Positions 1 to 64,000 of a stretch of DNA of 64,000 nt are shown here, piece after piece (within the stretch, counting starts at the first letter, position 1; each line of letters starts with the position of its first letter). The stretch covers positions 89,049,770 through 89,113,769 of the forward strand of contig NC_057713.1 of the NCBI RefSeq assembly GCF_004010195.1, given 5' to 3'. The position numbers and the translations under genes were made by a program. The DNA comes from Chiloscyllium plagiosum (taxonomy: Eukaryota). The notes beneath the pieces were generated by a model, which was given only the letters and a program-made list of their open reading frames with translations, did no database searches and was not told where the DNA came from.

Positions 1-409
1 GAAAGCAGTTTTAGCAGTTTTAGTAAAGTAAAAGTTGGAAACTTTCAAGAGGTGATCACACATGAGAGCAGAAAAGAAGGTAGAAAGGAGGTAAGATGGT
101 TAGTCCTTTTTAATAAAAGGATAATTAAAGCAGATTTAGCTTGGGGACCTGTGGCAGTACTAGAAGAAAGAGAAGCTTGAGATAGCCAAAAAGGAAATTG
201 GGTGGTCAATGCTTTAGCAGTAGGCTCACTGGTGAGTCTTGTGGACAAGAAGAGCTCAGAGTGGGCATTGTGGGTGAAGGTAGTGGAGAGGTATGGAATA
301 GGGGGTTAGGTGACAAAAAGCAGCAGATAGGACGATCTCAATCTATGTGACCAACATGCCCATGGACTCCTTTCAATTGCACTTGGTGGAGACAAGGGTG
401 GAATAGACT

Positions 410-635
410 AAAGTCAAAAAGTATGGTGCTGGAAAAGCACAGCTGGTCACGCAACATCCAAGGAGCAGGAGAATTGACATTTCGAGCATAAGCTATTCAT
501 CAGGAATGTCATGCTGAAGAGCTTATGCTCAACATCAGCTCTCCTACTCCTCGGATGCTTCTTAACCGGCTGTCCTTTTCCAGCTCCACACGTTTTGACT
601 CCGATCTCCAGCATCTGCAGTCCTCACTTTCTCCC
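410..635. mobile_element. Short fold-back PLE-derived element (family A) with degenerate hammerhead motifs
   Basis: Arms gtgctggaaaagcacagc... and ...gctgtccttttccagctccac are imperfect reverse complements. One-sided tail gatctccagcatctgcagtcctcactttctcc. Flanked by tgga(a/t)tagact at 399-409 and 636-646. Confidence 0.7.
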
Positions 636-1466
636 TGGATTAGACTGGAGAAAGGTTTAAGTAGAAGATTTGCTGTTGAGAAAAGGACCTAGGTTTTTCT
701 TTATTTCAGGATCATCCTGAAGTATAATGAGCAATTTCAATGGGGTGCTGACATCTAACCTGATCTGGTAATGAATGGCTATACCCATTGTCCACCCTAT
801 CTATATCCCTGTCCTTATGGAGCACAGCAGTCAGAGTGAGAGAGAGTACAACGATTTCACTAAGAATTGGAGCATCAATTTTGAAGGTGATGGTATGTTA
901 GATGCAACAAAGTTTATTTTTGAGACTGAGGCTAGACAGTTGTATTTTTTTAAAAATAATTTTTTGTCAGGTAGATTTAATGCCATAGGCTGGAGTGGGT
1001 AGATGAGAGTGGACAATGATCTAATGGAGTGATCAGAAATTGCCTTACCTATGTTTGATATGATGACCGCATTGAGGGGGTGGTGATGAATATAGGCTGT
1101 GGTGTTTTACATGGAGGGAGAAATTAAGAAGGCAATGAACTTAGAAGAAAACATGAGTGGAGATTGAAATTGCTGAGGCTGAGAAACCACTTCAGGCAGA
1201 GGATAAAGGATGGAAGCAGTGAAAATATCTTGGTGAGAAAGCTGTAATGGTACATGGATGCTCATCCGGCAAAGTCCCAAGCTTTAAGGGAACAGATCAA
1301 GACGTGATCCGATAATGAGTGCAGAGGAGAGAAATGAGCATAGATGTGAAGACAGGAGTGATGAGGGTAAAATGCAATAATTTAAAGATATTCATGTGTA
1401 CATTAGCACAGTAAAATGAGTTTTGATAAATGTATTTACATAATGCACACTTTCTTTTCCTTGAAG

Positions 1467-1563
1467 TAAAATGGACTCACTTAAAAGACAACATAACTGG
1501 ATTCAAGCGATGACAGATGAATGTGCGAACAATCTTAATCGGGCTGAGATTCTGCTCCAAGAG
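1467..1563 (+). CDS. DSP: DSP exon 2 (KMDSLKRQHNWIQAMTDECANNLNRAEILLQE)
   Basis: ttccttgaag acceptor, GAG|gtaaat donor, phase 2 to 0. Resembles human CSDCLMRAELIVQP. Confidence 0.85.
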
Positions 1564-4500
1564 GTAAATTCTTGTTCTGATCAAAAGCTATCATTATTAA
1601 GTTATAAGAGGAACTTACATTACAACAAAAATTTATATTCACGTCCCTGTCCACTCAATTTAGCAAAAATCAAAAATAACTCACAAATGAGCTCCGTGTT
1701 TGATCTGGTGCATCACCACGAGGTTTTTTGTGTCCTTAAAACTTTCCAGAGTTATTTTTCTAGAGTTTTTTCAAATAACTGTGTATTGTTTTCATTTCAC
1801 CCTCCATAAAGTTTTGAATGTTCTTTTATTAGATCTATAATAATTCAGCCAACCTTCAACTTTACAATTGTTACTATATTCTTTAGAGGTAGAGCAGTCA
1901 AAAGCATTCTAAGATGACAGTACAAAACAACAGTACAGAAAATGTCAGCTGTTAGACATCACATCAAATTTGGCTTATCCTTCAAAATAGAAATAAAAAT
2001 AAATATCATGTATTGCGTATGATAGGTGGTCATTCAGCTATGCAACAAAATACCAAGCACCAAGACAAATATCTGTCCCCCAGCTTTTTTAAAAAAAAAG
2101 AACATGTTGATTTAATTAACATTGGCATAATTATAATTAAAGCCACCCAAATAATTTCCTGGGATGTATTCCCAGGAATATCCTCCCTAAGTACAGCTGT
2201 AGTGCTATCCCTTATCAGAAATGCCACTCCCCTTCCTCTCTTGTCTCCCCTTTGTATTCTTCCAATTGCATTTTATCAGTCTGACCTTGTTCTCTGCTTT
2301 GTTCCTGTCTTCCCTGACTGTTTGTTTGACTTGCTCCTTTTCCAAATAGACAGTCAAGCGCAATTAGGAAGGCAAATGTGTGTTGTCCTTCATTGCAAGA
2401 TGATTTGCATTCAAAAGTAGCGATGTCATACGGCAGTTATATGGGGCCATGGTGAACTGTCTGCAATTTTGGTCTCACTACTTGAGAGGATATACAACCA
2501 TATAGGGAATACAGTGGGGCTTCGAGGCTGATACTGGAAATCCTATGAGGAAAGATGGGTTCACCTAGGCCTGTATTCACTAGAGCTTACAGGATGAGAG
2601 GTAATCTCATTGAAACATAAACTTCTAACAGGGTTGGACAGATCAGACACAAGAAGGATGTTTTCCCTGGTTGGTGAGTCCAGTTTCAGGGCCCACACTT
2701 CCAGGTTACTGGGTAGACCATTTAGCAATACAGTAATAAGGAGACATATTTTTGTAGAGTAGTGAACTTGTGGAAATCTTTGTCTGTGGCAGCCATGTCA
2801 CTAAATGTATTCAAGAAATAGATTATAGCTCTTTTTTTTAGGTTTTAAAGGCATTAAATGGTATGGGCAGAAAGTGGGAATATGGTATCAAGATAAAGGA
2901 TGAGCTGTGATCATATTGAATGGTACATCATGCTTAAAGGGCCTTCTGTTCCTAGTATCTATATTTCTATGTATTCCATGAACGCAGTCACCTAGAGGAA
3001 GACCCATGAATGTAAGATCCTTCTCCACTCAGCCCGGATAAAACCCATCAACATCTTCTCTCCAAAACCCCTCTCTCACTGTATGCCATTGTAGCCATCT
3101 CCCAGTAAGTCTCATATTCCACCACTATCACTGCTGCTTGCAACTTTTCCACTCCGTCTCATACATCTCAACACCACTAATTTCTGCATGCCCTCTGCAC
3201 TTAGGACACCTCCCCACCTGCACCAGAAGTAACAACTGTGCCACCCACTTTCAACCTCTGTCTGTCTCTGATTGTTCTAATGGTGCACTGCCCATCATTC
3301 AGCTTCTCACCTGGTGACTCTGACCACATCAAGAAAGCCTGGACTGGTATCAGAATCTGCCTGGGAGCTGCTGAGCAAAGGCAATGCTCCTTGACCTAAC
3401 CAATGTCTCTGGCAACCATGACATGCTTTCTGCCTTTGTGCCTGTGCTAAATGGCAAAGCAAGGCTGTATTAATGAGTCTGGTGTATCTGGCTGAACAGG
3501 TAAAACAGAGGCAAGGCATGCAAGGAACGGATGTTGTGATCACCCCAGAGATGCAACACAGTTCAGACCACAATCTCAGTGTTCCTGAGCACAGAGTGTC
3601 CTTTTTGCAGCATTGTAACAATAGATGCCATTGCAGCATTAAAGTGCAGCAGCATCCTGTAAGTGGAATAGAGATGTACATGAGCAACATTCCCTCTCTT
3701 TCCAATATGTGGACCTCTGAAATTTATGAATGGCCATGCCTTCTGGAAGAAGAGGCAAATGGATCAGGAAATGAAGTGGAGTGTATGGAATTTTCCAGCT
3801 GTGCAGCTTAGAGGGAACGTCAGCCATGTGGGTTCTGTGAGGTTGGCATGTGTCAGATGTTCATGGTTATGGAATCCATGGAGTGGCCTGTGCTCATGGG
3901 GTTTACTGTTAGACTTTGGTGCCCAGTGTCCCAACATGGATGGTGATTGAAGCAAGCATTGAGCTGAATCCTTCAGGTGCTGTCTCTGGTTTTCACTTGT
4001 TTGACAACTTTGATACGAAGGGCGGTTGAATATTAATGAGCGATTTGTGACTCGTACGAGTGCTAATCCCTGTCAAATGGTATCTGTGCCGACCCCTTGT
4101 TGAAAGTGTAAACAATGGACTGCGATAATCTTGGCATTGAGAGGGGTCTCTCTGCAATTGTTGGCTGATTGTGCAATGTATCTTGCCATAGACCACATCA
4201 TTCAGACTCCTCTGAGATTCTGCCCATTGTGTGTGTGGAAAGCTAATCAATAAAAATGTTTATAGCCTGATTTGTGCCCTGGAAAATAAATTTCTACTTC
4301 AGTGCTATATCAAATTTTCTGCTGTGTGAAATATTGTCTTTTAGATCTGATTTCTAAACCTGAGGGATTTGTCACATTCAGTAAATATAAGTTGGACATC
4401 TTGGGCTAGAAGTTGTCATATGTCAGTGTTTGGGCATGAAATTTATTTTAGCCTGTAGTCAGTTACGCAACAGTCACATTATTGATCTTTACTGTTTAGT

Positions 4501-7500
4501 GGCATCTCTGATGGCCATCTCAAAATGGTGTTAGATCAATTTTAAAGTATAAGGAACGATTCTGCACCTGCTTCACGTATCTGTTACATAAAATGTGTAA
4601 AAACAAATAAAGATGGAGTATGTGTTGTGTTTGTTGTGACAAGTTATTCCAGTTCTGCAGTGATCATAACAGTCCTTTTATAGGGACTGCTAAAAGGTAC
4701 AGAACAAACGAAGGAAAGGACTCGCTCAACAGCATTGCTGTGAGTCCTTAACTGATGGTTTTCCCATACAAGTTCATTCCTATTCTCGGTCATATCTTAC
4801 AGAATTAGCTCATTGTCCATTCGATCCACAATGCTGGATGCATAACCACTTGAAGTGAGGTACGTTTCTCCTGGAGAATAATCATAATTCCCTCATTCTG
4901 TTTTCATTTTGCTGATAAGCAAAGCTCAGGTTGCAAACTCCGCAAAACCCCAAGTGAAGTACTGGGGGGAGGTGGTGGTGGACAGTAGCCCAGGCATTGT
5001 TTATGGGGCTTGTTATCCTTGCGAAGAACCAAGGATATGGAGGTGCTGCTGCCTGGCGTGGGCACCCGTTATTTGAAGCTTGTAATCCTTATGATCCAGT
5101 TGTTGCCATTACTGGGCAGTTCAGATCCCAGAATGAATTGTGGCTTAATAGTTTATATTTTCTTCTTCAAATAAGTGATTTCTGACTAAAGCACAAGTAC
5201 ACAATGCTGCAGATTTGGTTTTAACAACAAAACATAAGTTTATTTTGCAGAACAAAAAATCAAATAAACCAAACTACTTACATATGATATAGTTCAAAGA
5301 TCCAAACTCTGTATTATGTTATCCTAAAATGTATATGAATCTGACACTTCTGCATCCACCAAAGAACAAAAATATATCTTTGTTTTCATTATCTATTTCA
5401 GATTATCTTAACACTATTTCTATATCATATTAACGGTAGTAACATATTAAAGTGAGTTACACAGCAACCATATTTTATGTAAGTTCATGAACACCACAAC
5501 ATTTGGTTAATAGTGAATAGATTGTCCACTAAGCATTTTCTTTTCCAGGCATGTCAATGATTTTTAAATTATAGTAAATTATATTAAAATATATAAAAAT
5601 CACAAACCTTGCAATACACAGTATAAACCAGGCCAATTATTAGCCACCATGGTAGATGGAACTTAATCCTACAGTTGTTGCCTCCCACCAGGTTACTATT
5701 ACCCTTCACTTGACTAACGTTGAGAGTCACTTGAAACTGCATTTTCTTGGCTTCTACTGAGCCACCTTGCTGCAGTGAATGACTGATATCAGGGGAGTTG
5801 ATAGTAGAGAGCATAGAAATGTTGGGGTCACACAGTCAACATTTTGTTACTTTTTTTACGATGGAGGATGCTACTACAATCCCAATAGTAACAGATAATG
5901 CAGAGATTATGGAAAGAGGAACTTAGAACAACCATCATCACTAGGGAAAAAAGTACTGAGCAAATTTTTGATGTTGAACGCAGACAAGTCCGCAGGCTGA
6001 TGGCACACATCCTAGGGCCTTAAAGGAAGGGGCAGCAGAGATATTGGATCCATTGGTTATAATATTCCAAAATTCTCTGCATGCAGGAAATGTTGCAATG
6101 GATGGGGAAATAATAATCTAATGTCCTTATTCAAAAATGGATGGAGGCATAAAGCGGGAAACTATAGACCAGTTAGTTTGATGAGCCATTGGGAAATTGT
6201 TGAATGGATTATGGAAGTAATAACAGATCATTTGGATAGTCAAAACACAGTCCATCAGAGACCTTGATATTATGAAGGCTAAATCATGTTTGGCTAATTT
6301 GCTCGTTTTACAAGGTGAATTAGGGGATGTTGTAAAGGTAGTATATCTGTATTTCTGGGATGTATTTGATAAGGTGCTGCTCAAATGGTCAATATACACG
6401 TTAATATCACATTGAGTTAGGGGTAATTTATTAGCTTGGATAGAGGATTGGCTAACCAACAGAAAATAAAGTTAAGATAAATTAATCTTTTTTTGATTTG
6501 TAAAATGTAACTACAGGTAGTGGAGTACCAGATTATTCAGTCCTTTGGTTGCAACTATTTACCACCTACATTAATGACTTGGATATACAGGTAGAAAGTG
6601 GAATAACTCTACAAAGACTGGTATCCCATCACTACGTCACCCTCTTATCTACATGTGCTTAGTACTTTACACTTGACTGGCTCCCTCGGAGCTAGTTCTC
6701 GGAGTAAACAGAACCTGTAACACTCCTGTTATATTTTTTTTTCGTAACCGCGGAAGACAATTCTGTTTTGTTTTCTTTACCGCCTAACTGCGGTAGTGCT
6801 TATTTTTCCCCAGCACCCATGGTGTGTGTGTGTGTAGGTGTGAGAGACACAAGGTGCACAAATCTTTATTCAATTTCCACCACCAGGAAGATAGGAAAAC
6901 ACCCGAGTGGCCAGTGCACTCCTGTTATTTTTTTTTGGCCGGTGCCTGGACCTGTTCCAATCCCTATTTATATATTTTTTTTTTGCCCTCTTCCCCTCTT
7001 GTTTATTTTTTTTTGAGACACAGTGAAGACATTCCTGTTTTTTTTTTCTTTTTCTTTTTTTTTCTTCTTTTGCTTATTTTTTTTTTCCCCAGCACCCATG
7101 GTGTGTGTGTGTGTACAGTGAAGGGGAGGGTAGGGACTAAATCAAAATAGAGTTAGAGGGAGAAATGATGCACTCCACTCCCTGCGGCGCCCACCTCTCC
7201 CTGAACAACTCCGGGGTGTTGGTGGACACCGCGTGCTCCTTCTCCAACGTAACCGCGGAAGAGGGGCAGGCAGTCGGCCCTAATGACCCCCTCCACGGCC
7301 CGCTGCCTGGACCTGTTAATGGCCAGTTTGGTCAGGCCCAGGAGCAGACCCACGAGGAGGTCTTCACACTCCTGTTATATATTTTTTTTTATTTTATTTT
7401 ATTTTTTTTTCCTTTTCTTTTTCTTTTTCACTCCTGTTATATATCTGTCAGCCAGGGCTCCCTGATTGGTGGACTAGATTAACAGCCCTAACTAGGAAAC

Positions 7501-20359: not shown

Positions 20360-20403
<44 letters not shown>

Positions 20404-53400: not shown

Positions 53401-56400
53401 GAATAACTACATTTATATAAATAAAACATTTACGTCATATCTTCTGAGAATATTTTGAGCACGAGTGACATTGTGATATAAGTCCTATGATTCTATCTGT
53501 CTCAAAAACAAACAAAGCTGTTAGCTTCATGTAGAAGAGTAAGAGTTCCCTTCCACCACCTTGATTTGTAAAAAATATTGATGTTTGATTGTTGGTGGTG
53601 GGCCAAAAATAGAATTCTAACAGCTCAGCAATATGTAACAAGAGTAAGACCTTCTTGAGGGTAGCCATTGTCTTTTCTAATGGTGCCCGTGAATAAAAAG
53701 AAAATCTTTGCAAATTTACACTTCCCTTGCCAATGTCGTGAATAGAATTAACTATGAATGTTTCTTACCAAGAAGTGAGTTCTTATCCGTGCTGTGGCCA
53801 ACAGATACCCTTTAATTGAAGTTACTTTTCAAACTCTGATGTCAGGTCAGTACCTCTGTGCTGTTTGTTCTGTGAAAATTGACTGCAGCTCTTTGTGTTG
53901 TAGCGGTGACCACACTTCAAAAGCAGTTTTAATGTCTGCAAAATGATTTGAAACATGTTGAGATCATGAAAGATGCTATAACAAATGGAAATGTTTTATT
54001 TCTTTACAATTTGAAGGTTGATCCTCTTGTTCTTTAAATTGCTCATTTTCTGCTACTAAAACCACTTTTTATCATTTTGAGATAGAGAAATGTTAAGGAC
54101 TTCTATTATTTGCTCCTTGTCCTGATCCTTTACTGACCTAACTGTGTGCAAGATTGTTTGTTCTTAAGATTATTACATATTCTAATTGTTTCATGTCATG
54201 TACTGGCTTTTTTTCTTACCCTTTATCCTTGTGGCTTAATGTTTTTAAAACTTTCTCATGAAAGAAGTCTATGACCTGCATAAATGAAGCCTTCTCTGTG
54301 TCCACTACAAAGCTTCTTCCTTGATACTCAAGGATAAATTTATATATTCAGTAGATGTATTCAATAATATATTCAATATATTTTATTTAATTTAGACTTT
54401 TCAGTTTTGGCTAACTTCTGTAATCCTAAGTATTATTGTAGTTGGTGGAAGTTTCAAAACACTGTTTTCAAGTTGCTACCTTTGCAGTCCACCCTTAATG
54501 AATCACCACTCTCCCATCCCATCTGATCTTAAGGTACTTTGTAGCAACATTATACAACAGGATGTAATACTGAGTTTGGGTAAATTACAAAACCTTGGCC
54601 AGTGTAGTAGGCTTCAATAAATTCTTTAGAGAGGGAAACTAGGGTAGAGTGGAAAAGAAGTTTAGGGAATGCAGTTCTCGAGGTTAGGCCTTAAGCAGTT
54701 ATTGACTTGGCCACCAATAGTGGAGTGACCAACATCAGCGATGCTCAGGAGGTTAGAGGTAGAGAAGTACTGATAGTTTGAAAAATTGTAGGGTTGGAAC
54801 AATTTATAAAGGTGGAAAGGGGCAAGTCCATGGAGGTGTTTGAAAGCAAGGATAAGAATTTTAAAAGCTAAGCATTTTGTGATCGCAAGCCAGGAGTCAA
54901 TGTTAAGTTAGTCGATACACAGGTAATAGGGGAACTTGTTGCTAGTTAGGACACAAGTAGAACACAGGAGTTTTGAATCACCATGTTTACAGAGGGTGGA
55001 ACATTGAAGTCCAGCCACAAAGACATTACCATAGTAATGTCTCAAGATACTGAAAGGCATTGATGAGGGTTTTGCCAGAAACATGAACTGTGGGATGGCT
55101 GAAATTAGTTAATATTGCAGAAGTGAAAATATTCTCATTGGCATACTATACTATAGAATGGATCAGTTGAGATGGTTGCATACATTTAAAGGGATGTTTC
55201 AGAATAAAGTATGGGCCCCTGAACCCATTCTAGCAATAATACTGACAACTTGTGCTCCATGCTCTGAGCCAAGTTCAGTACAGCACTGGCATCTACCTGA
55301 CAATGAGGAGCTTTTCCCAGGTACATCCTGTACACTAAAAGCAAGACAAATCCAATCCAATTACCATCCCACACTCTCAGTTATCAGTAAGGTGAGGGAA
55401 GATGGTCATCAACAATGTTATCAAGCAGCACTTGCTTTCCAAAAACTGCTTATTGATGTTCAGTTTGGGTTGGATTCTGCCAAGGGCATTTGGCTCTAGA
55501 CCTCATTATAACCTCTGTTCAAACATGGACAAAAGCTGAACTGAATACAGCATTTGACCAAGTGTGGCATCAAGGAGCCCGAGCAAATCTGGAGTCAGTG
55601 GGAATCCAGGGGGAAACTCTCCGCTGATTGGAATTATGCAAGCACAAAGGAAGATGTTTGTGGTTGTTGGAAGCCACTCATCTCAGCTTCAGGATATCTC
55701 TGCATGAATTGCTCAGAACAGTGGCCTAGGGTCAATAATCTTCAGTTGCTTCATCAATGACCTTCCGTCCTTCATTAGGTCAGAAGTGAGGATGTTTGCT
55801 GATGCTTACACAGGGTTCAGCAACATTCACGATTTTTCTTTTACCCAAGCTGTCCAAGTCTATATTCAGAAAGATCTGGACAACATCCAGATTTAGCAGG
55901 TAACATTTGTGCCACGTAAGTGCCAACAAGATAAAACCTAGACCATTGCCATTTGACATTCATTGGAATTACCATTGCTGAATCCCAAAATCAACGTCTT
56001 GGGCATTACCATTGATCATAAACTGAACTGGACTATCATATAAATACTGTGGCTACAAGAGCAGGTGAAAGGCTCAGGATCCTGTAGCGAATAACTCCCC
56101 TCCTGAATCCCAAAGCCTGTCTACCATGTGGCATGGTGGCACAGTGGTTAGCACTGCTGCCTCACAGCACTAGAGACCTGGGTTCATTTCCCGCCTCAGG
56201 CACCTGTGTGGAGTTTGCACATTCTCCCCGTGTCTGCGTGGGTTTCCTCTGGGTGCTCCGGTTTCCTCCCACAGTCCAAAATGTGCCGGTTAGGTGAATT
56301 GGCCATGCTAAATTGCCCGTAGTGCTAGGTGAAGGGGTAAATGTAGGGAAATGGGTCTGGGTGGGTTGTTCTTCGGAGGGTCGGTGTGGACTTGTTGGGC

Positions 56401-59400
56401 CGAAGGGCCTGTTTCCATACTGTAAGTAATCTAATCTAAAACGCACAAGTCAAGTGTGCGATGGACTATTTCCTATTTGTTTAGATGGTTGCAGCTCCAG
56501 CAACACTCAGGAAATTTGACACCACAAAGCATCCCTTTTGATTGGCACTATGCCCAAAAGCAATTACTCCTTCAGCCACCGATACACATTAACAACAGTG
56601 TGTACCATCTATAAAATGCATTAGAACAATTCACCAAGCGTCCTTTGACAGTACGCACAAACCTGCAATCAGCACCACCTAAAAGGACAAGAACAACAGA
56701 TACATGGGAATACCATTCCCTATAAGTTCTGCTCCAAGACACTTACCATCTAGACTTGGAAATATATTTAGTTCAAAATCACACAATGCCAGGCAATAGT
56801 CCAACAGATTTATTTGGAAGCACTAGCTTTCAGAGCGATGCTCCTTCATCAGGTAAGTTGTGGAACAGGACTATAAGACACAGACTTTATAGCAAAAGAT
56901 TACACTATCATGCAGTTAAAATATATTAAACAGACTTAGATTAAGTCTTTCACCTTTTAGAATGGTTTTGTTAGTTTCGGTCCGAAAAGGTTAATTAAGA
57001 GGAAGAAATTAAAGTATGAGATGAAGCTTGCTGGAGTTGTAAAAACAGCAAGAGTTTCTACGGGCCTTTTTAAAATGGAAAAGAGTAAATAAAGTGAGTT
57101 TAGCTCCTTTTGTAGACTATAAGGAAATGAAACAAACAAATATCTTGATCCTATCTTCACAATAGAGGATAGGAAAAACATTCCAACATGTGGAAGGGAG
57201 AGAGGAACTTGGTGAAACTGCAATCAAAAGGGAAGTGATATGAAGCAAGCTGAAAGAGTTGTGAGCTGACTAGTCTCCAAGTCTGAATAGACTTCACCCT
57301 AGAATCTCAGAGATTGCTAATGAACTAGATGCATTGCTGTAAATTTTCAAAAAGTTCCCTCTTTTCATGAATGGTTCCTTTAGATTGGAAATTAGCAAAT
57401 ACAATCCCTTTATTCAAGAATAAACAATGGCAGCAACCAGGAAACTAAAGATAAGTTAGATTGCCATCTGTCATGCGGAATGTATAAAATTGATCATTAA
57501 AATATTTGTAGCTGCGCATTTAGAAAATCTCAAGGTAAGTGGGAGGAGTCTGCATGCTTTCATCCAAAGGAAATCCTGTCTAACCAAATTTTTTGAATAA
57601 GTAACAACATGCTGTAGATAAAACGAAACCTGGAAACATACTTTACTTGGATTTCCAGAAGGAATTGTAGTAAGATATCACATCAAAGATCATTGCAGAA
57701 AATGAAAGCTCATAGTACAGGAGTTAACTTATTGATATGTATTGAATATTGGCTGGCAGGAAATACAGTATGCACAACTGGGCTGTTAGTAAGATCATAG
57801 TGAGAGAAGTATCACAAGGCTCTGTGCTCGAGGCCAAATTACTTATAATTAACTCTGACTGTTCTTAGCTTGCTATCTATAATTGTACATAGATATCAAG
57901 ATAGGTAGGAAAGTAGGTTGTGAAGAAGAGATAAGATGGTTGTCAGAGGATACAAATAAGGTTTAGTGAGTAGGCAAAAATCGGGCAGATAATGTATAAT
58001 TTTGAAAAATGTAAAATTATTCACTCTGATAGTAGCAATGAAGAAGCAGATTATTACTGGAGAAATGGAAAGCAACTATGGAATTCTGAATTGCGGAGGG
58101 ATCGAAGTGTTCTAGAGTCACTAAAAGTTAATATGCAGGTACAGGTCAGAAGAAGACTCGTGGGATACTATCCTTTTATTATAAAACCAGTTGAACTTAA
58201 AAGTGAGGATGTCATGCTTTGTTTATATTGCTCATTGATGAGACCACACTTTGAATGCTCTTATGTGGTTTTGGTAACAAAATTGAGAGCTGTAAATGCA
58301 TTGAAGGTAATTCAGAGGAGATTCACTGGATTGATACCTCAAATGAAACTTAAAAGGATAGGTTCAACAGGCAAGGCTTGTTTCCACTGGGGTTTAGAGT
58401 GAGGACTGGCTTGATTGAGACACAAGATCCTGAATGTTCTTAACAAAGTGGACATAGAATGAAGTTTCTTCTTGTGGTAGCCCAGAACTAGGCGTCACTA
58501 TTTTCAAATGAAGGGTTGCTCCTTCAAAACAGATGAAGGGAATTTTCTTCAGAGTAGTGTTATTTTTAAAGCAGAGACAGATTTGGTTTAGGAAAGGAAA
58601 TGCTAGATTTTTGGGGGTAGATGGGAATGTAGATGTTGAAACACACACATTGCAATGAAAGAGTTTTCTTTATCATTTCGTGGAGCATGTCCTTAATTTA
58701 CTACCCCACTTGTCCCATCCAATTCTTGTTATCATTAAGGATGAAAAGGAGACACTAACAGTCATTAATGCAATTTATATATCCTGTAAGTGTATGGTGA
58801 TGTGTTTCTCTTATTGTAGAATGGGGGAACAGCAATGAAAATGACAGCTTAATAAAGTGTAGGAGGCAGTGTAAGAGAATTGATGCTATAATTGATGCTG
58901 AAAGCATTTAAAAGAGATATCCCTTGTTTCATTCTCTGCAGTATTCTTAGGCTTAATCCAATGATATGTATAACTTGTTTTCAAATCAAGTATTCACCAG
59001 GTGAATGATCATAGCTCTCTTCCTGGCCTTTTCATAAAATGTGAATTTCTCATCTTAACTTCCTTTGAGTATTGCCAAGATATATCTTTCCAAAATCCTT
59101 TCTAGCCCTTAGTTGAGTATTAGCAAGCAAACAGACCAGACTGCAAATAGACTAAATCTTTCATATGTGTGTATCATACAGCAGAAAATCACAGATTCCT
59201 AAACTGCAAAAACATGGAGTATCATATTGAATTTGATTGCCTATCTTGGAGGCAGGAAGGAATTGTCCCTGGGATTTTCATTCAACTGTCCAGTTGCATT
59301 TGAGTGATCTGTGGTGTTTGCAGGGGTGGGGGGAAGAGTTGTGTGCTTGAAATGGTGTTTCACTGCCTTCCAGATGCAGTAAGACATAGCAACAAACTCA

Positions 59401-62400
59401 GAAGGGTGGTCACATATGAAAAGACAATAGCAGTCAGCCTTGCAATGGCCCTACTTGAGTTAGTTTGTCTAAAATGGGCCCAAGTATCTCCTCTGCTTAC
59501 AATTGTTATTGAGGAAATGATGACTTAAAGATTTTTTGGAGAATTTAAATAAGAATACTCCAAGGCCTCTCTTCCCCATTCAATACAGGCTCCAGTTCTT
59601 TACAGTCTTTAAATTTGCTTAGCAATTGTTCTGATGAAGAGCTCATAATGTTGCATGTTAAAACATTTCTACTTCACTACGAAAAGTCAAGAAATTATAA
59701 TGTTAAAAATGGATAATTAAACCACAAGAGAAATATTTTTGAGATTGGTAACATAGAATAACTTAGTTTTTCATTTGAAAGATTAATCTCTGTAGCACAA
59801 ACTTTAAATTAAACAACTAGTTGGAAGAATAATATTGATATTGAGCAAACATATATATTTGGTTTAAAGTAATCATTTTAAAAATCTGTATTTTGATGAT
59901 TTCACTTTTGAAATGTGGAAAGAAATAATTATTTATCTTTTACCTTAACATTTAGGCGACTAATATGATTCAGCAGACACATTCTGCTCAAAAAGAGATT
60001 TTGCAAGAAAAGGAGTCTCTCCTACTAAAAATCAAGCTCTTAGAGCAGGATAAATCGAGACTTCAACGGTATGAAGATGATCTAAGTCGAATAAAGGCAC
60101 AACTAGAAGCTGAATCCCGCTTGAAGCAACGACTTCAGGATGAAATTGATGCAGTTAAATCTGATCTAAGTTATTGGAAGAATCAAGCAGAAATACGACA
60201 ATTAGAGAAGGGGAAAACCAGCAATGAATTTGAGCAGTTAAAAGCTGAAATTGACAGATTGAAATTGGAACTGCGAATGACCGAAGAAAGGTATAGACAG
60301 AAACTGGAGGAAAGTGAAAGAACGAAGAGATCAGAACTGGAAGCACTGCATATTAAAACTAAATTAGAAATAGAAAAACTCAGTCGAGAAGTGCCAACCT
60401 TCAACAAACAGACTCAGACAGAGAATATAGTTACAGTTGATTCATCAAAACTTCTATTTGATGGAGTCCGTAAAAAGGTCACAGCAAACCAGTTGTATGA
60501 TTGCCAACTTATTGATAAATCAACTTTAGATCAGCTGTTAAGAGGCCAGAAAACAACAATGGATGTTTCAGATGAAATTAAATTGAATCTACGTGGTTTG
60601 GAGAACATAGCTGGAGTCTACTCACAGAAAAATGGAGAAAAACTTTCAATGTCAGAAGCAACGAAAAGGAATATTCTTACTCCTGATGTGGCCTTGTCAC
60701 TTTTAGAAGCACAGGCAGCTACTGGGCATATCATTGATCCAAACAAAAACAAGAAGATGACAGTGGATGAAGCTGTGGCTGTGGGCCTTGTCGACTATAA
60801 AGACCGAGACAAACTTCTGGCAGCAGAGAAGGCTGCAACTGGGTTTAAAGACCCATTTACAGGAAAAGCTATCTCCCTGTATGAAGCAATGAAGAAAGAT
60901 ATTGTTGACCGAGAGACTGGTCTTCGTTTGTTTGCAGCACAGATTGCAGCAGGAGGGATAATTGATTCGGTGAACAGTGTATATCTGCCAAAAGAGCTTG
61001 CTTATAAAAGGGGACTGATTGATGCAGAAATGTATCAAACACTTGCCTCTCCTTTTGATGACTCAAAAATTTTTGTTGATCCAAATACAAAGACAAAAGT
61101 GTCCTATCAACAACTGAAGTTGGCCTGTAGAACAGATCCTGGAACAGACTTGCTTCTTTTGCCAGTGGAAAAGCATGAAATAATGATACCAGGGATTAGA
61201 GCAGATGTGTCAGTAGACCATCTTGTGGAAGCCAAGGTTATAGATAAAAATACAGCTGCTGCTCTTGCGCATGGAACAGTAACAGTAGAGCAAATCAGTG
61301 ACAAGTATAGGGGCTACCTGCAAGGCAGCAATAGCATTTCAGGAGTATATGTTGAAGCCACAAAGGAGAAGCTTCCAATCTACCATGCCATGAGGAAAGG
61401 CTTGCTTAGACAGGGCACAGCCCTCGAGCTTCTGGAAGCTCAGGCAGCCACAGGCTTTGTAGTTGATCCTGTCAATAACCAAAAGCTGACAGTTGAGGAT
61501 GCCGCTGCAAAAGGAATTATAGGTCAAGAATTCAAAAGCAAACTACTTTCAGCAGAAAGGGCTGTTACTGGTTATAAAGATCCAGAAACTGGGAACACCA
61601 TCTCATTGTTTCAGGCAATGAGGAAAGGCCTGATCGAGCATAGTCATGGTATTCGCTTGCTGGAAGCTCAAATTGCAACCGGAGGAATTATTGATCCAAA
61701 GCATAGCCATCGTTTGCCAGTTGATGTTGCTTACAAACGTAATTATTTTGATGAAGAATTGAATGAAATTTTGATGGATCCAGATGATGATACTAAAGGC
61801 TTCTTTGATCCCAACACAGAAGAAAATCTGACCTATCTTCAGTTAGTTGACCGGTGCATAACTGATAAATCCACAGGTCTTTGTTTGTTGCCACTGAGAG
61901 AAAAGAAAAAAGAATCCAAAACCACTAGGTCATCTGCAGTGAGAAAACGTAGAGTTGTAATTGTAGATCCTGATACAAATCAAGAAATGACAGTACGTGA
62001 AGCCTACCATAAGGATTTGATTGATTATGAGACTTTTCTAGAGCTTTCTGAACAGGAAGCAGAGTGGGAAGAAATAACAATAACGGGTTCGGATGGAACC
62101 ACAAGGACAGTTATTGTTGACAGAAAAACTGGTAATCAGTATGACATTGAAGAGTCTTTAAAGAAAGGTTTAATTGATAATAAGAGTCTTGACGCCTACC
62201 GCTCTGGAAGTATGACACTTACGCAGTTTGCAGACATGTTCACTGATAAGATTAATATCAGCACATATAATGGAAGTGCACCAAACAGTTTGACAAACCT
62301 TAATCCATGCCTATCCCCAACTATTAAAATAACATCTTTTGAATCTTTAGATGATGCCAGTCCGATTGCAGCTATATTTGATATTGAAACATTAGAAAAG

Positions 62401-63108
62401 ATAACAATTTCTGAAGCCATACGTCGTAGCATTGTTGATGCTATTACAGGGCAGAGGTTGTTGGAAGCCCAGGCCTGTACAGGAGGTATAATAAATCCTG
62501 GAAATGGTCAAAAACTGCTCATTCACGATGCTGTATCTCAGGCTATTATTGATGAAGACATGGGAAAGAGATTAAAGCCAGCACAGAAAGCATATGTTGG
62601 GTTTGAAGATGTGAAGAGCAAAAAAAGGCTGTCTGCGGTAGAAGCAATGCAAGAAAATTGGTTACCGTATGAAGCCGGACAACGATTCCTTGAGTATCAG
62701 ATGGCGACAGGTGGACTCGTTGTACCAAATGTTTCAGGACGAATTACTGTTGATGAAGCAGTAAGAAAAGGTTTCATGGGTGCCAAAACAGCAGAGAAAC
62801 TGAAAGATACCAGTAGCCATTCAAAAAGCCTAACCTGTCCTAAAACAAAATTGAAGATTTCATATAAAGAGGCAGTAGATCGATCTATGGTTGAAGATAA
62901 AACTGGCCTACGGATGTTGGAAGCTGCATCATTTTCTACAAAAGGAATTAACAGTGCTTATAATACAGGTGGATTCTCTGGACCAAATTCGCGTTCAGGT
63001 TCTCGTTCAGGTTCACGAAGCGGGTCACGAAGAGGAAGTTTTGACGCCACCTCCTACAATGTGTCTGTCAGTACACACACAACCCATTTGAGCACTTCCA
63101 TGCGCTAA
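1467..63108 (+). CDS. DSP: Desmoplakin (DSP or DSP-like paralogue), multi-exon and 5'-partial; exons 2-24 by human numbering
   Basis: 23 GT-AG exons with compatible phases give one 7873-nt open frame. It encodes a plakin/spectrin-repeat head with SH3, a coiled-coil rod, three plakin repeat domains (A, B, C) and a GSRS-repeat tail. Many exon lengths match human DSP as recalled (129, 162, 105, 96, 126, 155, 127, 202, 139, 194, 163, 84, 108, 99). Confidence 0.95.
2400..2975 (+). mobile_element. Degenerate CR1-type LINE 3' fragment
   Basis: Decayed similarity to the better-preserved CR1 RT C-terminus copies in this window; ends in (tctatg)-like repeats. Boundaries approximate. Confidence 0.6.
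6591..7547. mobile_element. Possible solo-LTR-like element (about 250 bp) hosting a scrambled Tx1/L1 insertion
   Basis: Interrupts the CR1; ends gtag...ctaca; tacag at 6586-6590 and 7544-7548. The LTR identity is tentative. Confidence 0.35.
6735..7428 (-). mobile_element. Rearranged 3' end of a Tx1/L1-type LINE with multiple poly(A) tracts
   Basis: Minus-strand peptide LLLGLTKLAINRSRQRAVEGVIRADCLPLFRGYV resembles the Tx1-clade ORF2 C-terminus. GC-rich and CpG-rich, so probably young. Poly-T tracts on + strand; flanked by cactcctgttatat repeats. Confidence 0.65.
8613..9300 (-). mobile_element. CR1/HER1 LINE 3' fragment
   Basis: ORFs 8695-9057 and 9097-9288 encode YRERLNRLGLFSLECRRLRGDLIEVYKIM, the CR1 RT C-terminus; tail ctctatgactct. 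Confidence 0.9.
9453..9604 (+). CDS. DSP: DSP exon 3 (DLDAFDVG...KPYESIQK)
   Basis: tttacag acceptor, AG|gtaagg donor, 152 nt, phase 0 to 2. Confidence 0.88.
10230..10456. mobile_element. MITE / non-autonomous Tc1-mariner (Tigger-like) DNA transposon
   Basis: Terminal inverted repeats tagatatcccccgcttt and aaagcgggggatacctg, with TA on both sides (10228-29, 10457-58). Confidence 0.75.
11392..11431 (-). ncRNA. Minimal type I hammerhead ribozyme motif in PLE (antisense copy)
   Basis: Reverse complement gca CTGATGA t gtcgcctagccaggggac GAAAC GTT tgc, with stem I gca/tgc intact. Confidence 0.72.
11977..12016 (+). ncRNA. Minimal type I hammerhead ribozyme motif in PLE (sense copy)
   Basis: gca CTGATGA t gtc-g-cct agcc agg-g-gac GAAAC GTT tac: intact core, stem II and ACGU palindrome in place of stem III; one mismatch in stem I. 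Confidence 0.7.
13222..13384 (+). CDS. DSP: DSP exon 4 (VNFHRNQMRAISKAI...ELFSWLHQQK)
   Basis: gtgcag acceptor, AAG|gtaagt donor, 163 nt. Matches human QMRALYKAI...WDE...GWMRQQR. Confidence 0.9.
14956..15296 (+). mobile_element. HE1-like tRNA-derived SINE
   Basis: Pol III A box (tggctcagtgg) and B box (ggttcaattcc); body gccatgctaaattgccc shared with the 34470 and 56130 copies; CR1-like tail. Confidence 0.85.
15710..15838 (+). CDS. DSP: DSP exon 5 (SLMDMQDWGVD...KARMEQ)
   Basis: aaacag acceptor, CAG|gtaatt donor, 129 nt, WGVD motif. Confidence 0.93.
17863..17931 (+). CDS. DSP: DSP exon 6 (QGNFSESSREHMQALQNEYDSML)
   Basis: ttcctcatgtag acceptor, TTG|gtgagc donor, 69 nt in frame. Ends like human LEEEYENLL. 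Confidence 0.82.
18038..18199 (+). CDS. DSP: DSP exon 7 (KASTERLEQL...EIMWINDREEEELVHDWSDKN...EAFS)
   Basis: caatag acceptor, TCT|gtaagt donor, 162 nt, strong plakin motif. Confidence 0.96.
18355..18870 (-). mobile_element. CR1/HER1 LINE 3' fragment
   Basis: Diverged copy of the 8613-9300 sequence (agagtcatag...acagacccttcagtccaac...caacatcctggtaaatctcttctgaaccctctcc). Confidence 0.8.
19976..20080 (+). CDS. DSP: DSP exon 8 (MMMSKLEEKEKQLN...HPAADKIE)
   Basis: tgttag acceptor, GAG|gtgggg donor, 105 nt. Confidence 0.95.
20240..20345. mobile_element. Degenerate fragment related to the 63730-63826 hammerhead element family
   Basis: gtgttggagaaactcagcacgcctggcagcatatgtagg resembles gctggaaaatctcagcaggtctggcagcatctgaagg at about 63740. 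Confidence 0.5.
20364..20410. repeat. (CT)n microsatellite
   Basis: Seen directly in the sequence. Confidence 0.95.
21476..21571 (+). CDS. DSP: DSP exon 9 ([32 protein letters not shown])
   Basis: ttgcag acceptor, CAG|gtatgc donor, 96 nt. Confidence 0.96.
22185..22615 (-). mobile_element. Degenerate CR1 LINE internal fragment
   Basis: Minus ORF ITREKVLSKLSGWKADK; reverse complement of the 5870-6200 type sequence. Confidence 0.65.
22766..22891 (+). CDS. DSP: DSP exon 10 (FFEDAQATE...MITESE)
   Basis: ttatag acceptor, GAG|gtattc donor, 126 nt. Confidence 0.94.
23725..23889 (+). CDS. DSP: DSP exon 11 (KDKEKIHEYKRQV...ALCDYKQDQ; start of SH3)
   Basis: tggcag acceptor, CAG|gtacag donor, 165 nt. 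Confidence 0.95.
24100..25520 (+). mobile_element. CR1/HER1 LINE RT region and 3' end (frameshifted)
   Basis: Peptides FKKGGKEKPGSYRPVSLT, LYRTLVRPLLEYCVQFWSP and YRERLNKLGLFSL. Confidence 0.92.
25901..26087. mobile_element. Short fold-back PLE-derived element (family A) with mutated hammerhead
   Basis: Arms aaaaatgtgttgctggaaaagcgcagcaggtcagg and cctgacctgctgtacttttccagcaacacatttt. Core ggaatc CTGAAGA a gggcttatgtct AAAAC att gattc. TSD ggttggatcaa at 25890-25900 and 26088-26098. Confidence 0.8.
26241..26610 (+). mobile_element. tRNA-derived SINE (second family)
   Basis: A-box-like tggcacagtgg, B-box-like gggttccaatcc, A-rich end. Boundaries approximate. Confidence 0.6.
26872..27173 (-). 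mobile_element. HE1-like SINE, diverged
   Basis: Reverse complement of the HE1 body (catctaatctgcatatctttttgactgtgggag...aaactccacacag). Confidence 0.7.
27329..27483 (+). CDS. DSP: DSP exon 12 (RVVHRGDECILLDNSQRSKW...VPSVCLLIPPPN; SH3)
   Basis: ttttag acceptor, AA|gtagga donor, 155 nt. Confidence 0.95.
27591..27717 (+). CDS. DSP: DSP exon 13 (IDQYYEAILSLWNQLYINMKSLVSWQYC...)
   Basis: attcag acceptor, GTG|gtaaga donor, 127 nt. Confidence 0.96.
28511..29010. other. Assembly gap (500 N) in DSP intron 13
   Basis: Run of N. Exon phases on either side are compatible, so no exon needs to be missing. Confidence 0.99.
29578..29779 (+). CDS. DSP: DSP exon 14 (LRTMSREDY...EEERKNDR)
   Basis: tttcag acceptor, G|gtttgt donor, 202 nt, phase 1. 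Confidence 0.9.
30534..30727 (+). CDS. DSP: DSP exon 15 (PVIIQAVAAPP...ELQKIRRRLE...SELE)
   Basis: atacag acceptor, GAG|gtgagt donor, 194 nt, phase 1 to 0. Confidence 0.88.
33120..33292 (+). CDS. DSP: DSP exon 16 (LAQDELNTIDDD...FSSAYLE)
   Basis: gtacag acceptor, AG|gtgagt donor, 173 nt, phase 0 to 2. Confidence 0.88.
34470..34782 (+). mobile_element. HE1-like tRNA-derived SINE ending in (aatct)n next to the exon 17 acceptor
   Basis: A box, HE1 body and tail tactgtagggaatctaatct. Confidence 0.88.
34803..34941 (+). CDS. DSP: DSP exon 17 (MKALKLLFQNILEAEDVIKVYEARLTEEET...NLK)
   Basis: ttttag acceptor, AAG|gtaaac donor, 139 nt. Confidence 0.95.
35400..36137 (+). mobile_element. CR1/HER1 LINE 3' fragment
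   Basis: ORF 35480-35872 encodes [31 protein letters not shown]; tail ctctatgactct. Confidence 0.92.
37520..38330 (+). mobile_element. Degenerate CR1 LINE fragment
   Basis: RLSEWARTWQVEYNVKK; gagccttggtgagaccacatctggagtattgt. Confidence 0.75.
39076..39269 (+). CDS. DSP: DSP exon 18 (KMKSELDQKK...DRWQRINKEIDS)
   Basis: poly-T tag acceptor, AG|gttggg donor, 194 nt. Confidence 0.93.
39455..40855 (+). mobile_element. CR1 LINE 3' fragments (two adjacent pieces)
   Basis: LYKAPVRPHLEYCEQFW and EIRRNFFSQRVVNLWHSLP; tails cctatgtcttatg (about 40330) and cctatattgtatg (about 40850). Confidence 0.8.
41845..42007 (+). CDS. DSP: DSP exon 19 (YLDLDKEYRQLKDY...QLNEQK)
   Basis: atgcag acceptor, AAG|gttggt donor, 163 nt. 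Confidence 0.93.
43594..43677 (+). CDS. DSP: DSP exon 20 (KLYAEIKGKRGNVEAYQKHADLCATSVK)
   Basis: gaatag acceptor, AAG|gtaaga donor, 84 nt. Confidence 0.93.
43765..43872 (+). CDS. DSP: DSP exon 21 (DYELQLASYSAGLETLLNIPIKR...ILHE)
   Basis: aaacag acceptor, GAG|gtgtgt donor, 108 nt. Confidence 0.96.
45264..45359 (-). mobile_element. Single-arm family A PLE-derived insert with degenerate hammerhead
   Basis: Reverse complement gattc CTGCTGA a gggcttgtgccc AAAAC gtt gattctcc; TSD tgtat(c/a)gtatctg at 45251-45263 and 45360-45372. Confidence 0.72.
45500..46230 (+). mobile_element. Old CR1/L2-type LINE 3' fragment with small nested insert
   Basis: Similar to 55900-56760 (gaagcttgacaccatccagaacaaag...ccacctagaaggacaagg). 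Confidence 0.6.
46715..46995 (+). mobile_element. CR1/HER1 3' end
   Basis: ggttcaaggtgcgaaggggaagtttaaaagagatgtg...; (gttcttt)n tail. Confidence 0.7.
47505..48730 (-). mobile_element. Old LINE 3' fragment with a nested CR1 3' end (about 47857-48320)
   Basis: Reverse complement of the 45500-46230 and 55900-56760 type sequence, interrupted by taagaacagaagaactagg...cattcagtaagatcatggctga. Confidence 0.6.
48860..49840 (+). mobile_element. Highly degenerate CR1 LINE RT fragment
   Basis: Decayed RT motifs (gaattatttttgaagaggtgac; ttaggaaattggctgaat). Confidence 0.55.
50329..50427 (+). CDS. DSP: DSP exon 22 (SADLQSRYIELLTRSGDYYKYLSEMLKNMEEVK)
   Basis: atttag acceptor, AAG|gtgaat donor, 99 nt. Confidence 0.96.
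50736..52553 (+). CDS. DSP: DSP exon 23, coiled-coil rod (IKNTKIELLEE...FQKQALE), 606 codons
   Basis: atacag acceptor, GAG|gtacat donor. E/K/R/L/Q-rich heptad sequence whose termini match human LKNTKIEVLEE and FQKQALE. Confidence 0.95.
52707..52901. mobile_element. Short fold-back PLE-derived element (family A) with truncated hammerhead
   Basis: Arms aatgtgttgctggaaaagcgcagcaggtcaggcagcatccaaggagcagg and cctgctccttggatgctgtctgacctgctgcgcttttccagcaacata; TSD taattgtgg at 52698-52706 and 52902-52910. Confidence 0.8.
55170..56770 (+). mobile_element. Old CR1/L2-type LINE RT-to-3' fragment with nested HE1 SINE
   Basis: gcatttgaccaagtgtggcat (AFDxVWH) and ttcatcaatgaccttcc...atgtttgctgatg (FINDLP..MFAD). 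Confidence 0.7.
56130..56437 (+). mobile_element. HE1-like tRNA-derived SINE
   Basis: A/B boxes, HE1 body and (aatct)n tail. Confidence 0.88.
56771..56980 (-). mobile_element. PLE-derived 3' fragment (family B) with hammerhead motif at 56821-56855
   Basis: Reverse complement tac CTGATGA a ggagc atc gctct GAAA GCTA gtg; end sequence aaaatcacacaa...gtccaaca shared with 45630-45670. Confidence 0.65.
56985..58660 (+). mobile_element. Degenerate CR1 LINE (RT to 3' end)
   Basis: ORF 57992 encodes YNFEKCKIIH...LYCSLMRPHFEC...VIQRRFTGLIP. Confidence 0.75.
59956..63108 (+). CDS. DSP: DSP exon 24 coding part: end of rod, plakin repeat domains A/B/C, linker and GSRS tail; TAA stop
   Basis: tttag acceptor then ATNMIQQ. 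Repeated LLEAQAATGxIIDP plectin repeats; C-terminal SRSGSRSGSRSGSRRGSFDA. Confidence 0.97.
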   Translation, partial: ATNMIQQTHSAQKEILQEKESLLLKIKLLEQDKSRLQRYEDDLSRIKAQLEAESRLKQRLQDEIDAVKSDLSYWKNQAEIRQLEKGKTSNEFEQLKAEIDRLKLELRMTEERYRQKLEESERTKRSELEALHIKTKLEIEKLSREVPTFNKQTQTENIVTVDSSKLLFDGVRKKVTANQLYDCQLIDKSTLDQLLRGQKTTMDVSDEIKLNLRGLENIAGVYSQKNGEKLSMSEATKRNILTPDVALSLLEAQAATGHIIDPNKNKKMTVDEAVAVGLVDYKDRDKLLAAEKAATGFKDPFTGKAISLYEAMKKDIVDRETGLRLFAAQIAAGGIIDSVNSVYLPKELAYKRGLIDAEMYQTLASPFDDSKIFVDPNTKTKVSYQQLKLACRTDPGTDLLLLPVEKHEIMIPGIRADVSVDHLVEAKVIDKNTAAALAHGTVTVEQISDKYRGYLQGSNSISGVYVEATKEKLPIYHAMRKGLLRQGTALELLEAQAATGFVVDPVNNQKLTVEDAAAKGIIGQEFKSKLLSAERAVTGYKDPETGNTISLFQAMRKGLIEHSHGIRLLEAQIATGGIIDPKHSHRLPVDVAYKRNYFDEELNEILMDPDDDTKGFFDPNTEENLTYLQLVDRCITDKSTGLCLLPLREKKKESKTTRSSAVRKRRVVIVDPDTNQEMTVREAYHKDLIDYETFLELSEQEAEWEEITITGSDGTTRTVIVDRKTGNQYDIEESLKKGLIDNKSLDAYRSGSMTLTQFADMFTDKINISTYNGSAPNSLTNLNPCLSPTIKITSFESLDDASPIAAIFDIETLEKITISEAIRRSIVDAITGQRLLEAQACTGGIINPGNGQKLLIHDAVSQAIIDEDMGKRLKPAQKAYVGFEDVKSKKRLSAVEAMQENWLPYEAGQRFLEYQMATGGLVVPNVSGRITVDEAVRKGFMGAKTAEKLKDTSSHSKSLTCPKTKLKISYKEAVDRSMVEDKTGLRMLEAASFSTKGINSAYNTGGFSGPNSRSGSRSGSRSGSRRGSFDATSYNVSVSTHTTHLSTSMR

Positions 63109-63273
63109 CCGTTTGCTACAAATATCAAAGCAATGTGGATTTTCGAAATTTGTTGAAGATCCAAATCTTTACTTTTATTTTCAGATTGTTTTATTCCACA
63201 CCTGTGCCCTGTCAAAATCAGTACCTGTTTAATTTGTGCTATGTTTATTAATCAATATCCCAAGATTTCAAAT

Positions 63274-63279
63274 AATAAA
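63274..63279 (+). promoter_or_regulatory. Candidate polyadenylation signal AATAAA for DSP
   Basis: First AATAAA after the stop codon, about 165 nt downstream; not confirmed by transcript data. Confidence 0.5.
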
Positions 63280-63562
63280 CGATTCACTTAGGTTAGCTTG
63301 TCAGCTGAGGTGAGGTATTAAGAGATTGCCCACTTGTGTGCATTATCAGCCACATGGTACCATTAGAGAGCTGGGATGCTATGGAAGACTGATGGCCCAA
63401 CCCACATTCAAAATTGAAGACTGCAGCTGACACACACATCCCCAAATGCCACAATAACTCTCATAGCCAGTGATATTTATATGGGAATTATGAGGTTATG
63501 GGAGATTACCTAATACTTTACCATGCAATTGCTAAGCATCTGGCTCCTTTGATAGATAATAC

Positions 63563-63826
63563 CTGAAGCAAAACAAAAACAAAATATTGACGCTGGAAAT
63601 CTAAAATGAAAGTATAGTATTGAAAATGATGAGAGACTGGGAGGCAGGGTTCAGGTTTCAAGTCAAGAATAACACCGCTCCAAAATAGATTGTGTGCTCT
63701 ATTCTGAAGAAGGGTCACCATTCACCTCCAAAAGAGAAAATGCTGGAAAATCTCAGCAGGTCTGGCAGCATCTGAAGGAGAGAAAAGAGCTGACGTTTCG
63801 AGTTTAACTAACCCTTTGTCAAAGCT
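63563..63826 (-). mobile_element. PLE-derived fragments (family C) with hammerhead motif
   Basis: gctggaaaatctcagcaggtctggcagcatc arm similar to family A; ctgaagaagggtc remnant at about 63704; minus-strand hammerhead at 63788-63826. Confidence 0.6.
63788..63826 (-). ncRNA. Minimal hammerhead ribozyme motif, U3-A8 core variant
   Basis: Reverse complement agct TTGACAA a gggt tagttaa actc GAAAC GTC agct: perfect 4-bp stem I, 4-bp stem II, GUC cleavage triplet. Confidence 0.65.
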
Positions 63827-64000
63827 GTGTGCAAGTACCTGTAATCCTGGAGGCTGCATGCAGGGTGGAATTTGAATTAAAATCCATGTGGAGTAAGTCG
63901 GAGGTGAAGACAGTCACCGAGGAAGGAAATATGGCTGTGGAAGCGAGTCTTAGTAAGTACCTTGTCTAACACTCAGAGAAAAGGAAAGCAGTGAAGGTGG

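Follow-up and report, generated by a model that had tools for sequence, protein, structure and literature searches.

Hammerhead-bearing inserts at a plakin gene of Chiloscyllium plagiosum as probable truncated Penelope-like element insertions

A 64,000-nt stretch of the Chiloscyllium plagiosum genome (NC_057713.1, positions 89,049,770 to 89,113,769; hereafter the window) carries nine short inserts in and next to a plakin gene, most of them with a hammerhead-type motif. Most probably these are heavily 5′-truncated insertions of at least four families (here A, B, C and P) of endonuclease-positive (EN+) Penelope-like elements (PLEs), of which the pseudo-long terminal repeat (pseudo-LTR) end with its minimal hammerhead ribozyme (min-HHR) is left. 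The reverse transcriptase (RT)/GIY-YIG protein of such an element would cut target DNA with a variable stagger, yielding target-site duplications (TSDs) of 8–15 bp and once of 79 bp. Reverse transcription would initiate internally, at either of two adjacent positions on the RNA, so that 3′-ends come with or without a tail, and would usually end early; a second, inverted cDNA would often be joined head to head via a few bases of microhomology. Each palindrome would be built at insertion rather than being itself the unit that transposes, and the RNA template would be uncut at the copied hammerhead. The anatomy, the open reading frame (ORF) link of family P, the variable junctions and the intact majority core of family A come from the present analysis, while double-strand cleavage and the two internal start sites are taken from papers on other PLEs, namely PAc, the Poseidon element of Anolis carolinensis. 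We infer that families A, B and C have coding parents of their own.

An autonomous partner was shown for one of the four families, family P. Positions 11688–11996 of its insert translate into 102 stop-free residues, and a protein search with this translation found nine proteins among 204 candidates, the closest from bamboo and epaulette sharks and the best (P0001, bamboo shark) with 86% identity. P0001 carries an RT domain (Pfam RVT_1, E 3e-6, 27.4 bits, below the cut-off of 29.6) and, C-terminally, an endonuclease region with YIG/CxxC motifs; since no extra Cys motif is seen by eye between the two, it fits Penelope/Poseidon and not Neptune. P0001, P0003 and P0006 end at hammerhead-encoded residues, and P0002 continues into the same sequence downstream. 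The translation match, together with relatives that end in the hammerhead, points to a Penelope/Poseidon 3′-end: as judged from its letters, 11356–12090 is the last ∼415 bp of an element of this type plus an inverted copy of ∼320 bp, the two being 96% identical. A preliminary description made from the letters of the window had overlooked this coding content, and its view of the inserts as non-autonomous fails for family P, whose insert is the 3′-end of a truncated RT/GIY-YIG ORF of autonomous type. For P0001, no related loci were found in metagenome or viral contigs, and no solved relative was found. Family P endonuclease pieces are annotated as C-termini of MAP3K7 and NT5DC1 isoforms, and family A pieces as alternative C-termini of FUBP3-like isoforms; the proteins with such pieces of family A or P (P0014, P0015, P0013, P0004 and P0007) may represent exonisations or annotation artefacts.

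Self-BLAST of the window recovered all nine inserts in four sequence families (Table 1), in agreement with the at least nine inserts and at least four families first proposed for these places. Eight of the proposed bounds stand, the long insert begins at 11356 instead of 11354, and decayed family B relatives near 20240–20345 and 29915–30010 had been missed. Eleven pieces were counted, making up 3.5% of the window. Downstream of the motif, the family B arm is 57–67% identical to the longer family A arms, suggesting that A and B are related lineages; the value against the family A stub at 9067 is 37%. As far as they are present in the window, families A, B and C are non-coding. Families A and C are presumably of Neptune type, an assumption of ours that is not part of the claims made here. 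The abundance of family A was seen in sequencing data of two organisms (four runs) aligned to 52420–53220, in which 83,923 and 91,020 contigs align on the insert 52707–52901 and the flanks are mostly at depth 8–50; these numbers show great abundance, not copy number. In at least 1,889 and at least 2,183 contigs, the sequence passes at 52706 from the tail end into dissimilar, AT-rich flanks. Organism B shares the insert at 52707, with a contig that bridges its right junction. RNA reads share 25–30 nt upstream of the window copies of family A (410 and 197 reads, agreement 0.68 and 0.63), indicating that longer family A members exist.

The hammerhead was parsed in 12 arms under a single score, with 398 random 140-nt stretches as a control. 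A score of at least 4 was reached by five of the 12 arms and by none of the random stretches, and a score of at least 3 by seven arms and one stretch. The core is intact in four arms, namely both P arms, the C arm and the B arm (as a U3:A8 variant), whereas the inserts 9067–9125 and 45630–45682 have no hammerhead. Each window copy of family A carries one to four core changes, mostly at CpG-type sites; reads on the 52707 copy show that the majority core of this family is intact (at 52829, 335 of 529 have G; at 52834, 356 of 542 do), and box 1 and helix II are also seen in the loose-end contig consensus of family A. Helices I and II use different letters in P, C, B and A yet still pair, that is, they covary; the best arms pair at three to five of five positions in helix I and at four to five of five in helix II, helix I of family A being weak. 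The common layout first described is that of a minimal type I hammerhead, with the correction that the palindrome already begins with the last A of ‘GAAA’ (GAA followed by ACGU or AGCU). Hammerhead searches, which had been proposed as a check, rose above random in this arm-based parse and not in two blind scans: Rfam at E ≤ 5 gave three unrelated matches and no hammerhead, and a relaxed descriptor run across the whole window was not above chance (two real matches against 0–4 in 12 simulated windows). Folding z-scores of six motifs, calculated on single strands, ranged from −0.8 to +0.4, no better than shuffles, and co-folded copy pairs of three motifs gave no dimer hammerhead, co-folding being uninformative here. 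The predicted motif is credible through its position and its conservation within families rather than through a blind scan.

Two further observations concern the motif itself. In the family B hammerhead (63770–63826, minus strand), U3/A8 replace C3/G8, a compensated variant known from Schistosoma PLEs; U3-A8 covariation has been reported for PLE hammerheads (PMC4209133), and its occurrence in family B hints at selection for catalysis. The sense strand of family A is open for ∼30 codons across the hammerhead at 52823–52895 (plus), 26006–26076 (plus) and 45260–45361 (minus), and two of these three copies have a loop II ATG that resembles the start of the PAc ORF in helix II. This open frame may be the start of a parent ORF, or chance.

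Direct repeats adjoin seven of the nine inserts and measure 8, 9, 11, 11, 13, 15 and 79 bp, varied rather than fixed at 2 or 8 bp. The lengths first given (six of 8–15 bp and one of 79 bp) were thus reproduced, and two inserts are without a convincing repeat: none was found at 56771–56980, and none was convincing around the whole of 63563–63826. With the same loose repeat search, four of 59 random sites scored at least as high as the weakest real repeat. By eye, 63563–63826 looks like a compound of an older decayed copy and a younger one. A 7-bp direct repeat (63691–63697 / 63826–63832) flanks 63698–63825 as a possible TSD of the younger part, at a score equalled by 11 of 59 random sites. The 79-bp repeats around 9067–9125 would, if they are a TSD and not a local duplication, far exceed the 8–10 bp TSDs of published PLE insertions. 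The four fold-backs with a one-sided tail in the preliminary description were all recovered; they are head to head, each with a tail of 34–39 nt on one side only. The three family A fold-backs show three different junctions, and in contigs of the two organisms the joints (15 of 245 shown) run from various points in one arm to the second arm, with the letters between the arms being the hammerhead 5′ helix strand in several of them. These differing junctions in the window and in the contigs indicate that the palindrome is made at insertion.

The anatomy agrees with that of known PLEs. Like the inserts, the min-HHRs of metazoan PLE pseudo-LTRs have no helix III, a palindrome at 15.2–16.2, an extra nucleotide before helix II, G10.1-C11.1, a short helix I and a U3-A8 variant (PMC4209133). 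As in the window, that paper describes several families per genome, thousands of mostly solo copies and opposite-strand pairs 100–700 bp apart, and it ascribes the solo and opposite-strand motifs to truncated PLEs. EN+ PLE insertions (PMC3846280, PMC8557442) likewise show 5′ truncation, an adjacent inverted truncated copy, palindromes with microhomology at the inverted junction, 8–10 bp TSDs and a one-sided tail of 30–40 bp, with which the 34–39 nt found here agree. Unlike published EN+ PLEs, most inserts here are the last 53–230 bp, they are very dense, and one duplication reaches 79 bp. PAc (PMC11167929) has, as does family P, an RT with a C-terminal GIY-YIG and a min-HHR in the pseudo-LTR; its reverse transcription is described as starting at two internal sites on uncut RNA, with both strands cleaved and extended, and its tail lies between the two start sites, as it would here. 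The PAc ORF starts in helix II, whereas the upstream ORF of family P, known from sequence only, stops there. Taken together, these findings bear out the initial attribution of the inserts to PLE-type minimal hammerheads and PLE reverse transcription.

Several results weigh against truncated PLE insertion as the whole explanation. Nine well-preserved arms extend as far as box 1, and six of them end within ∼6 nt of it (five of five in family A, one of one in family B), while both P arms and the C arm continue upstream; two decayed B-like arms were excluded from this count, and the bound of the C arm is that of the preliminary description. In both organisms, contig loose ends fade into dissimilar flanks 6–8 nt upstream of the core, with the reservation that contig counts favour unique flanks. 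The 5′-ends are therefore non-random, with all five A arms and the one B arm that extend to box 1 ending near it, unlike plain random truncation. For families A, B and C the analysis yielded no coding parent, the protein searches covering family A only. HMMER with family A against 1.84 billion representatives gave one match, a 96-residue protein ending in an exonised motif, and a word search gave two host-protein isoforms among 22 candidates; the queries were 31–65 residues from non-coding sequence, and hence weak. DNA patterns of family A had no matches in viral contigs or metagenomes and 38 prokaryotic matches, taken as chance, with best alignments of at most 44 bp. The autonomous PLE that had been proposed for each family was found for family P and not for family A. 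Pfam GIY-YIG reached E 0.027 on P0003, below the cut-off, and gave no match on P0001. No empty-site joint was present among the 15 of 245 contig joints shown.

Transcription starting at this point, stalling of the RT, a splice boundary or a short master would each account for the clustered ends; clustering of 5′-ends at hammerhead box 1 was not found in print. In D. virilis, helix I maps to the intron end (PMC4209133), and the start site lies 46 bp before a 75-bp intron (PMC2377424). We tentatively suggest, as a possibility not met in the literature searched, that the short copies may be complete run-off cDNAs, ∼130-nt ‘strong-stop’ products, instead of random truncations. The PLE protein would then prime in the first (5′-most) pseudo-LTR of its own transcript, synthesis would run off the RNA 5′-end just before the hammerhead, and the ∼130-nt product would be inserted singly or as a head-to-head pair. 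Families A and B might instead be short non-autonomous elements, SINE-like (short interspersed nuclear element), with a ∼130-nt master RNA starting at the hammerhead 5′ edge and the PLE protein acting in trans. Such a master would account for the 5′-ends that cluster at the hammerhead in the six arms and the contig loose ends and for the very high contig numbers on a single copy, and non-autonomous PLE derivatives have been described (PMC8557442; bioRxiv 10.64898/2026.07.22.740005). Since no ORF partner was found for A and B, this explanation keeps some weight; it is nevertheless unlikely, given that RNA reads share sequence 25–30 nt further upstream, that family P has the same anatomy yet codes, and that the partner searches were weak.

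A ribozyme-based, retrozyme-like system had been the favoured interpretation of the preliminary description. Animal non-LTR retrozymes (PMC7229834; bioRxiv 10.64898/2026.07.22.740005) are, like the inserts, short, with a type I hammerhead, a link to PLE pseudo-LTRs and long TSDs (>4 bp; PMC7229834), and the second source, of 2026, derives them from PLE pseudo-LTRs and reports them in one chondrichthyan. In such a system the hammerhead would cut tandem units down to monomers, which would then form circles and be reverse-transcribed, in keeping with the dimer-type palindrome of the motif. Retrozymes occur as head-to-tail tandem units and are expressed as circles, whereas the inserts are single or head to head, an arrangement that cannot form a tandem dimer, and one is coding. 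No tandem array lies at any insert in the window (none of the 17 TRF rows is one of these elements), and the motif is of the minimal rather than the canonical kind. The cleavage site is not the starting point of any family A or B copy; because none is bounded by it, the copied ribozyme was uncut. RNA reads show no start or end pile-up, a weak test since the poly(A) single-cell library is insensitive to it. A retrozyme origin is thus very improbable, and it was rejected for the absence of tandem units in the window and the coding insert of family P; copies that run through an uncut ribozyme likewise leave the proposed ribozyme-based system unsupported. Short palindromes with direct repeats also recall miniature inverted-repeat transposable elements (MITEs) of a cut-and-paste DNA transposon, which the first description had already argued against. 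TSD lengths of 8–79 bp, terminal 15 nt that match at only 2–6 positions, a one-sided tail, variable junctions, single-arm copies with TSDs and a coding RT-family remnant make this origin next to inconceivable, and the MITE reading was rejected on finding neither terminal inverted repeats nor a TSD of fixed length.

The last coding exon of the host plakin gene, which we take to be desmoplakin from its GSRS tail, spans 59956–63108 (plus strand) and has eight plectin repeats. Eight inserts lie among the exons upstream of it, and 63563–63826 lies ∼450 nt beyond the stop codon. Other repeats include three copies of a tRNA-like SINE (14957–15297, 34469–34782 and 56128–56439), presumably HE1, and numerous 3′ fragments of a long interspersed nuclear element (LINE), presumably CR1 (for example 8612–9299, 24973–25464 and 35406–36140). 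An assembly gap of 500 N lies at 28511–29010, and 6708–7430 is a short duplicated segment with T-rich tracts, in which a motif near 6800 recurs near 7100.

Table 1. Inserts, their arms and flanking repeats in the window. C3 and U3 are hammerhead core positions.
Feature	Position	Strand	Remarks
TSD of insert 410–635	399–409 / 636–646	+	11 bp, 1 mismatch
Family A inverted arm, without tail	410–508	−	decayed min-HHR, C3 at 503; ends 5 nt upstream of core
Family A primary arm	509–635	+	decayed hammerhead box at 514; tail ∼602–635
ORFs on LINE fragment around stub 9067–9125	8695–9096, 9097–9345
79-bp duplication of LINE fragment, interrupted by 9067–9125	8988–9066 / 9126–9204	+	97% identity
Family A stub	9067–9125	−	tail + ∼25 nt; without hammerhead
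TSD of insert 11356–12090	11348–11355 / 12091–12098	+	8 bp, exact
Family P insert	11356–12090		735 bp
Family P inverted 5′-truncated copy	11356–11677	−	96% identity to other arm; intact min-HHR core, C3 at 11428; tail-less
Family P ORF C-terminus, predicted Penelope/Poseidon RT + GIY-YIG	11676–11996	+	∼106 codons; stop codon in hammerhead helix II
Family P min-HHR	11976–12017	+	core intact, C3 at 11980
Family P one-sided tail	12052–12090	+	39 nt
Decayed family B-like copy	20240–20345	−	bounds approximate
Family A fold-back	25901–26087	.	TSD 25890–25900 / 26088–26098, 11 bp
Minus arm of 25901–26087	25901–25990	−	tailed; stops before hammerhead
Plus arm of 25901–26087	25991–26087	+	hammerhead with C3 at 25994; tail-less
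Family B-like copy, strongly decayed	29915–30010	.	possibly fold-back; bounds approximate
TSD of insert 45264–45359	45251–45263 / 45360–45372		13 bp, 1 mismatch
Family A single arm, tail-less	45264–45359	−	hammerhead C3 at 45354; ends 4 nt upstream
TSD of insert 45630–45682	45615–45629 / 45683–45697		15 bp, exact
Family C stub, without hammerhead	45630–45682	.	37 nt match 56770–56806, + 16 nt of other sequence, presumably an inverted tail end
Family A fold-back	52707–52901	.	TSD 52698–52706 / 52902–52910, 9 bp
Minus arm of 52707–52901	52707–52811	−	tailed
Plus arm of 52707–52901	52811–52895	+	starts within hammerhead box 1
Family C arm, intact min-HHR	56771–56980	−	C3 at 56852, AGCU palindrome; assumed to extend ∼128 nt upstream, the bound of the preliminary description
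Older decayed family B-like sequence	63563–63724	.	plus-strand hammerhead box 1 at 63704, by eye
Family B arm, U3:A8-type min-HHR	63725–63826	−	U3 at 63822; ends ∼4 nt upstream of core

A literature search on shark or elasmobranch hammerheads returned one review, in which sharks are named only for the word, and the accessible part of PMC5753468 holds nothing on palindromes. Penelope is listed for the whale shark (PMC8455134). The accessible parts of PMC4209133 name fishes, coelacanth, Xenopus and reptiles, with no shark and no mention of 5′-ends at the motif, and its supplements may list shark motifs. The shark families may therefore be undescribed in the literature searched, although their kind is already known: the inserts are abundant, already described genomic debris and not a new ribozyme-driven system. 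Their meaning lies in the correct annotation of abundant shark repeats that are easily mislabelled as MITEs, and in a dense natural sample of PLE insertion products with two classes of 3′-end, variable inverted junctions and TSDs of up to 79 bp. The formation of PLE inverted ends and solo pseudo-LTRs is described in the literature as unresolved, and the many genomic copies would provide a test of it, provided that the clustered 5′-ends lie at the RNA start. Should the short copies indeed be run-off products, these stubs would record, as a fossil map, where transcription and, at its two sites, reverse transcription began, and an autonomous element would spawn SINE-like progeny without a separate master.

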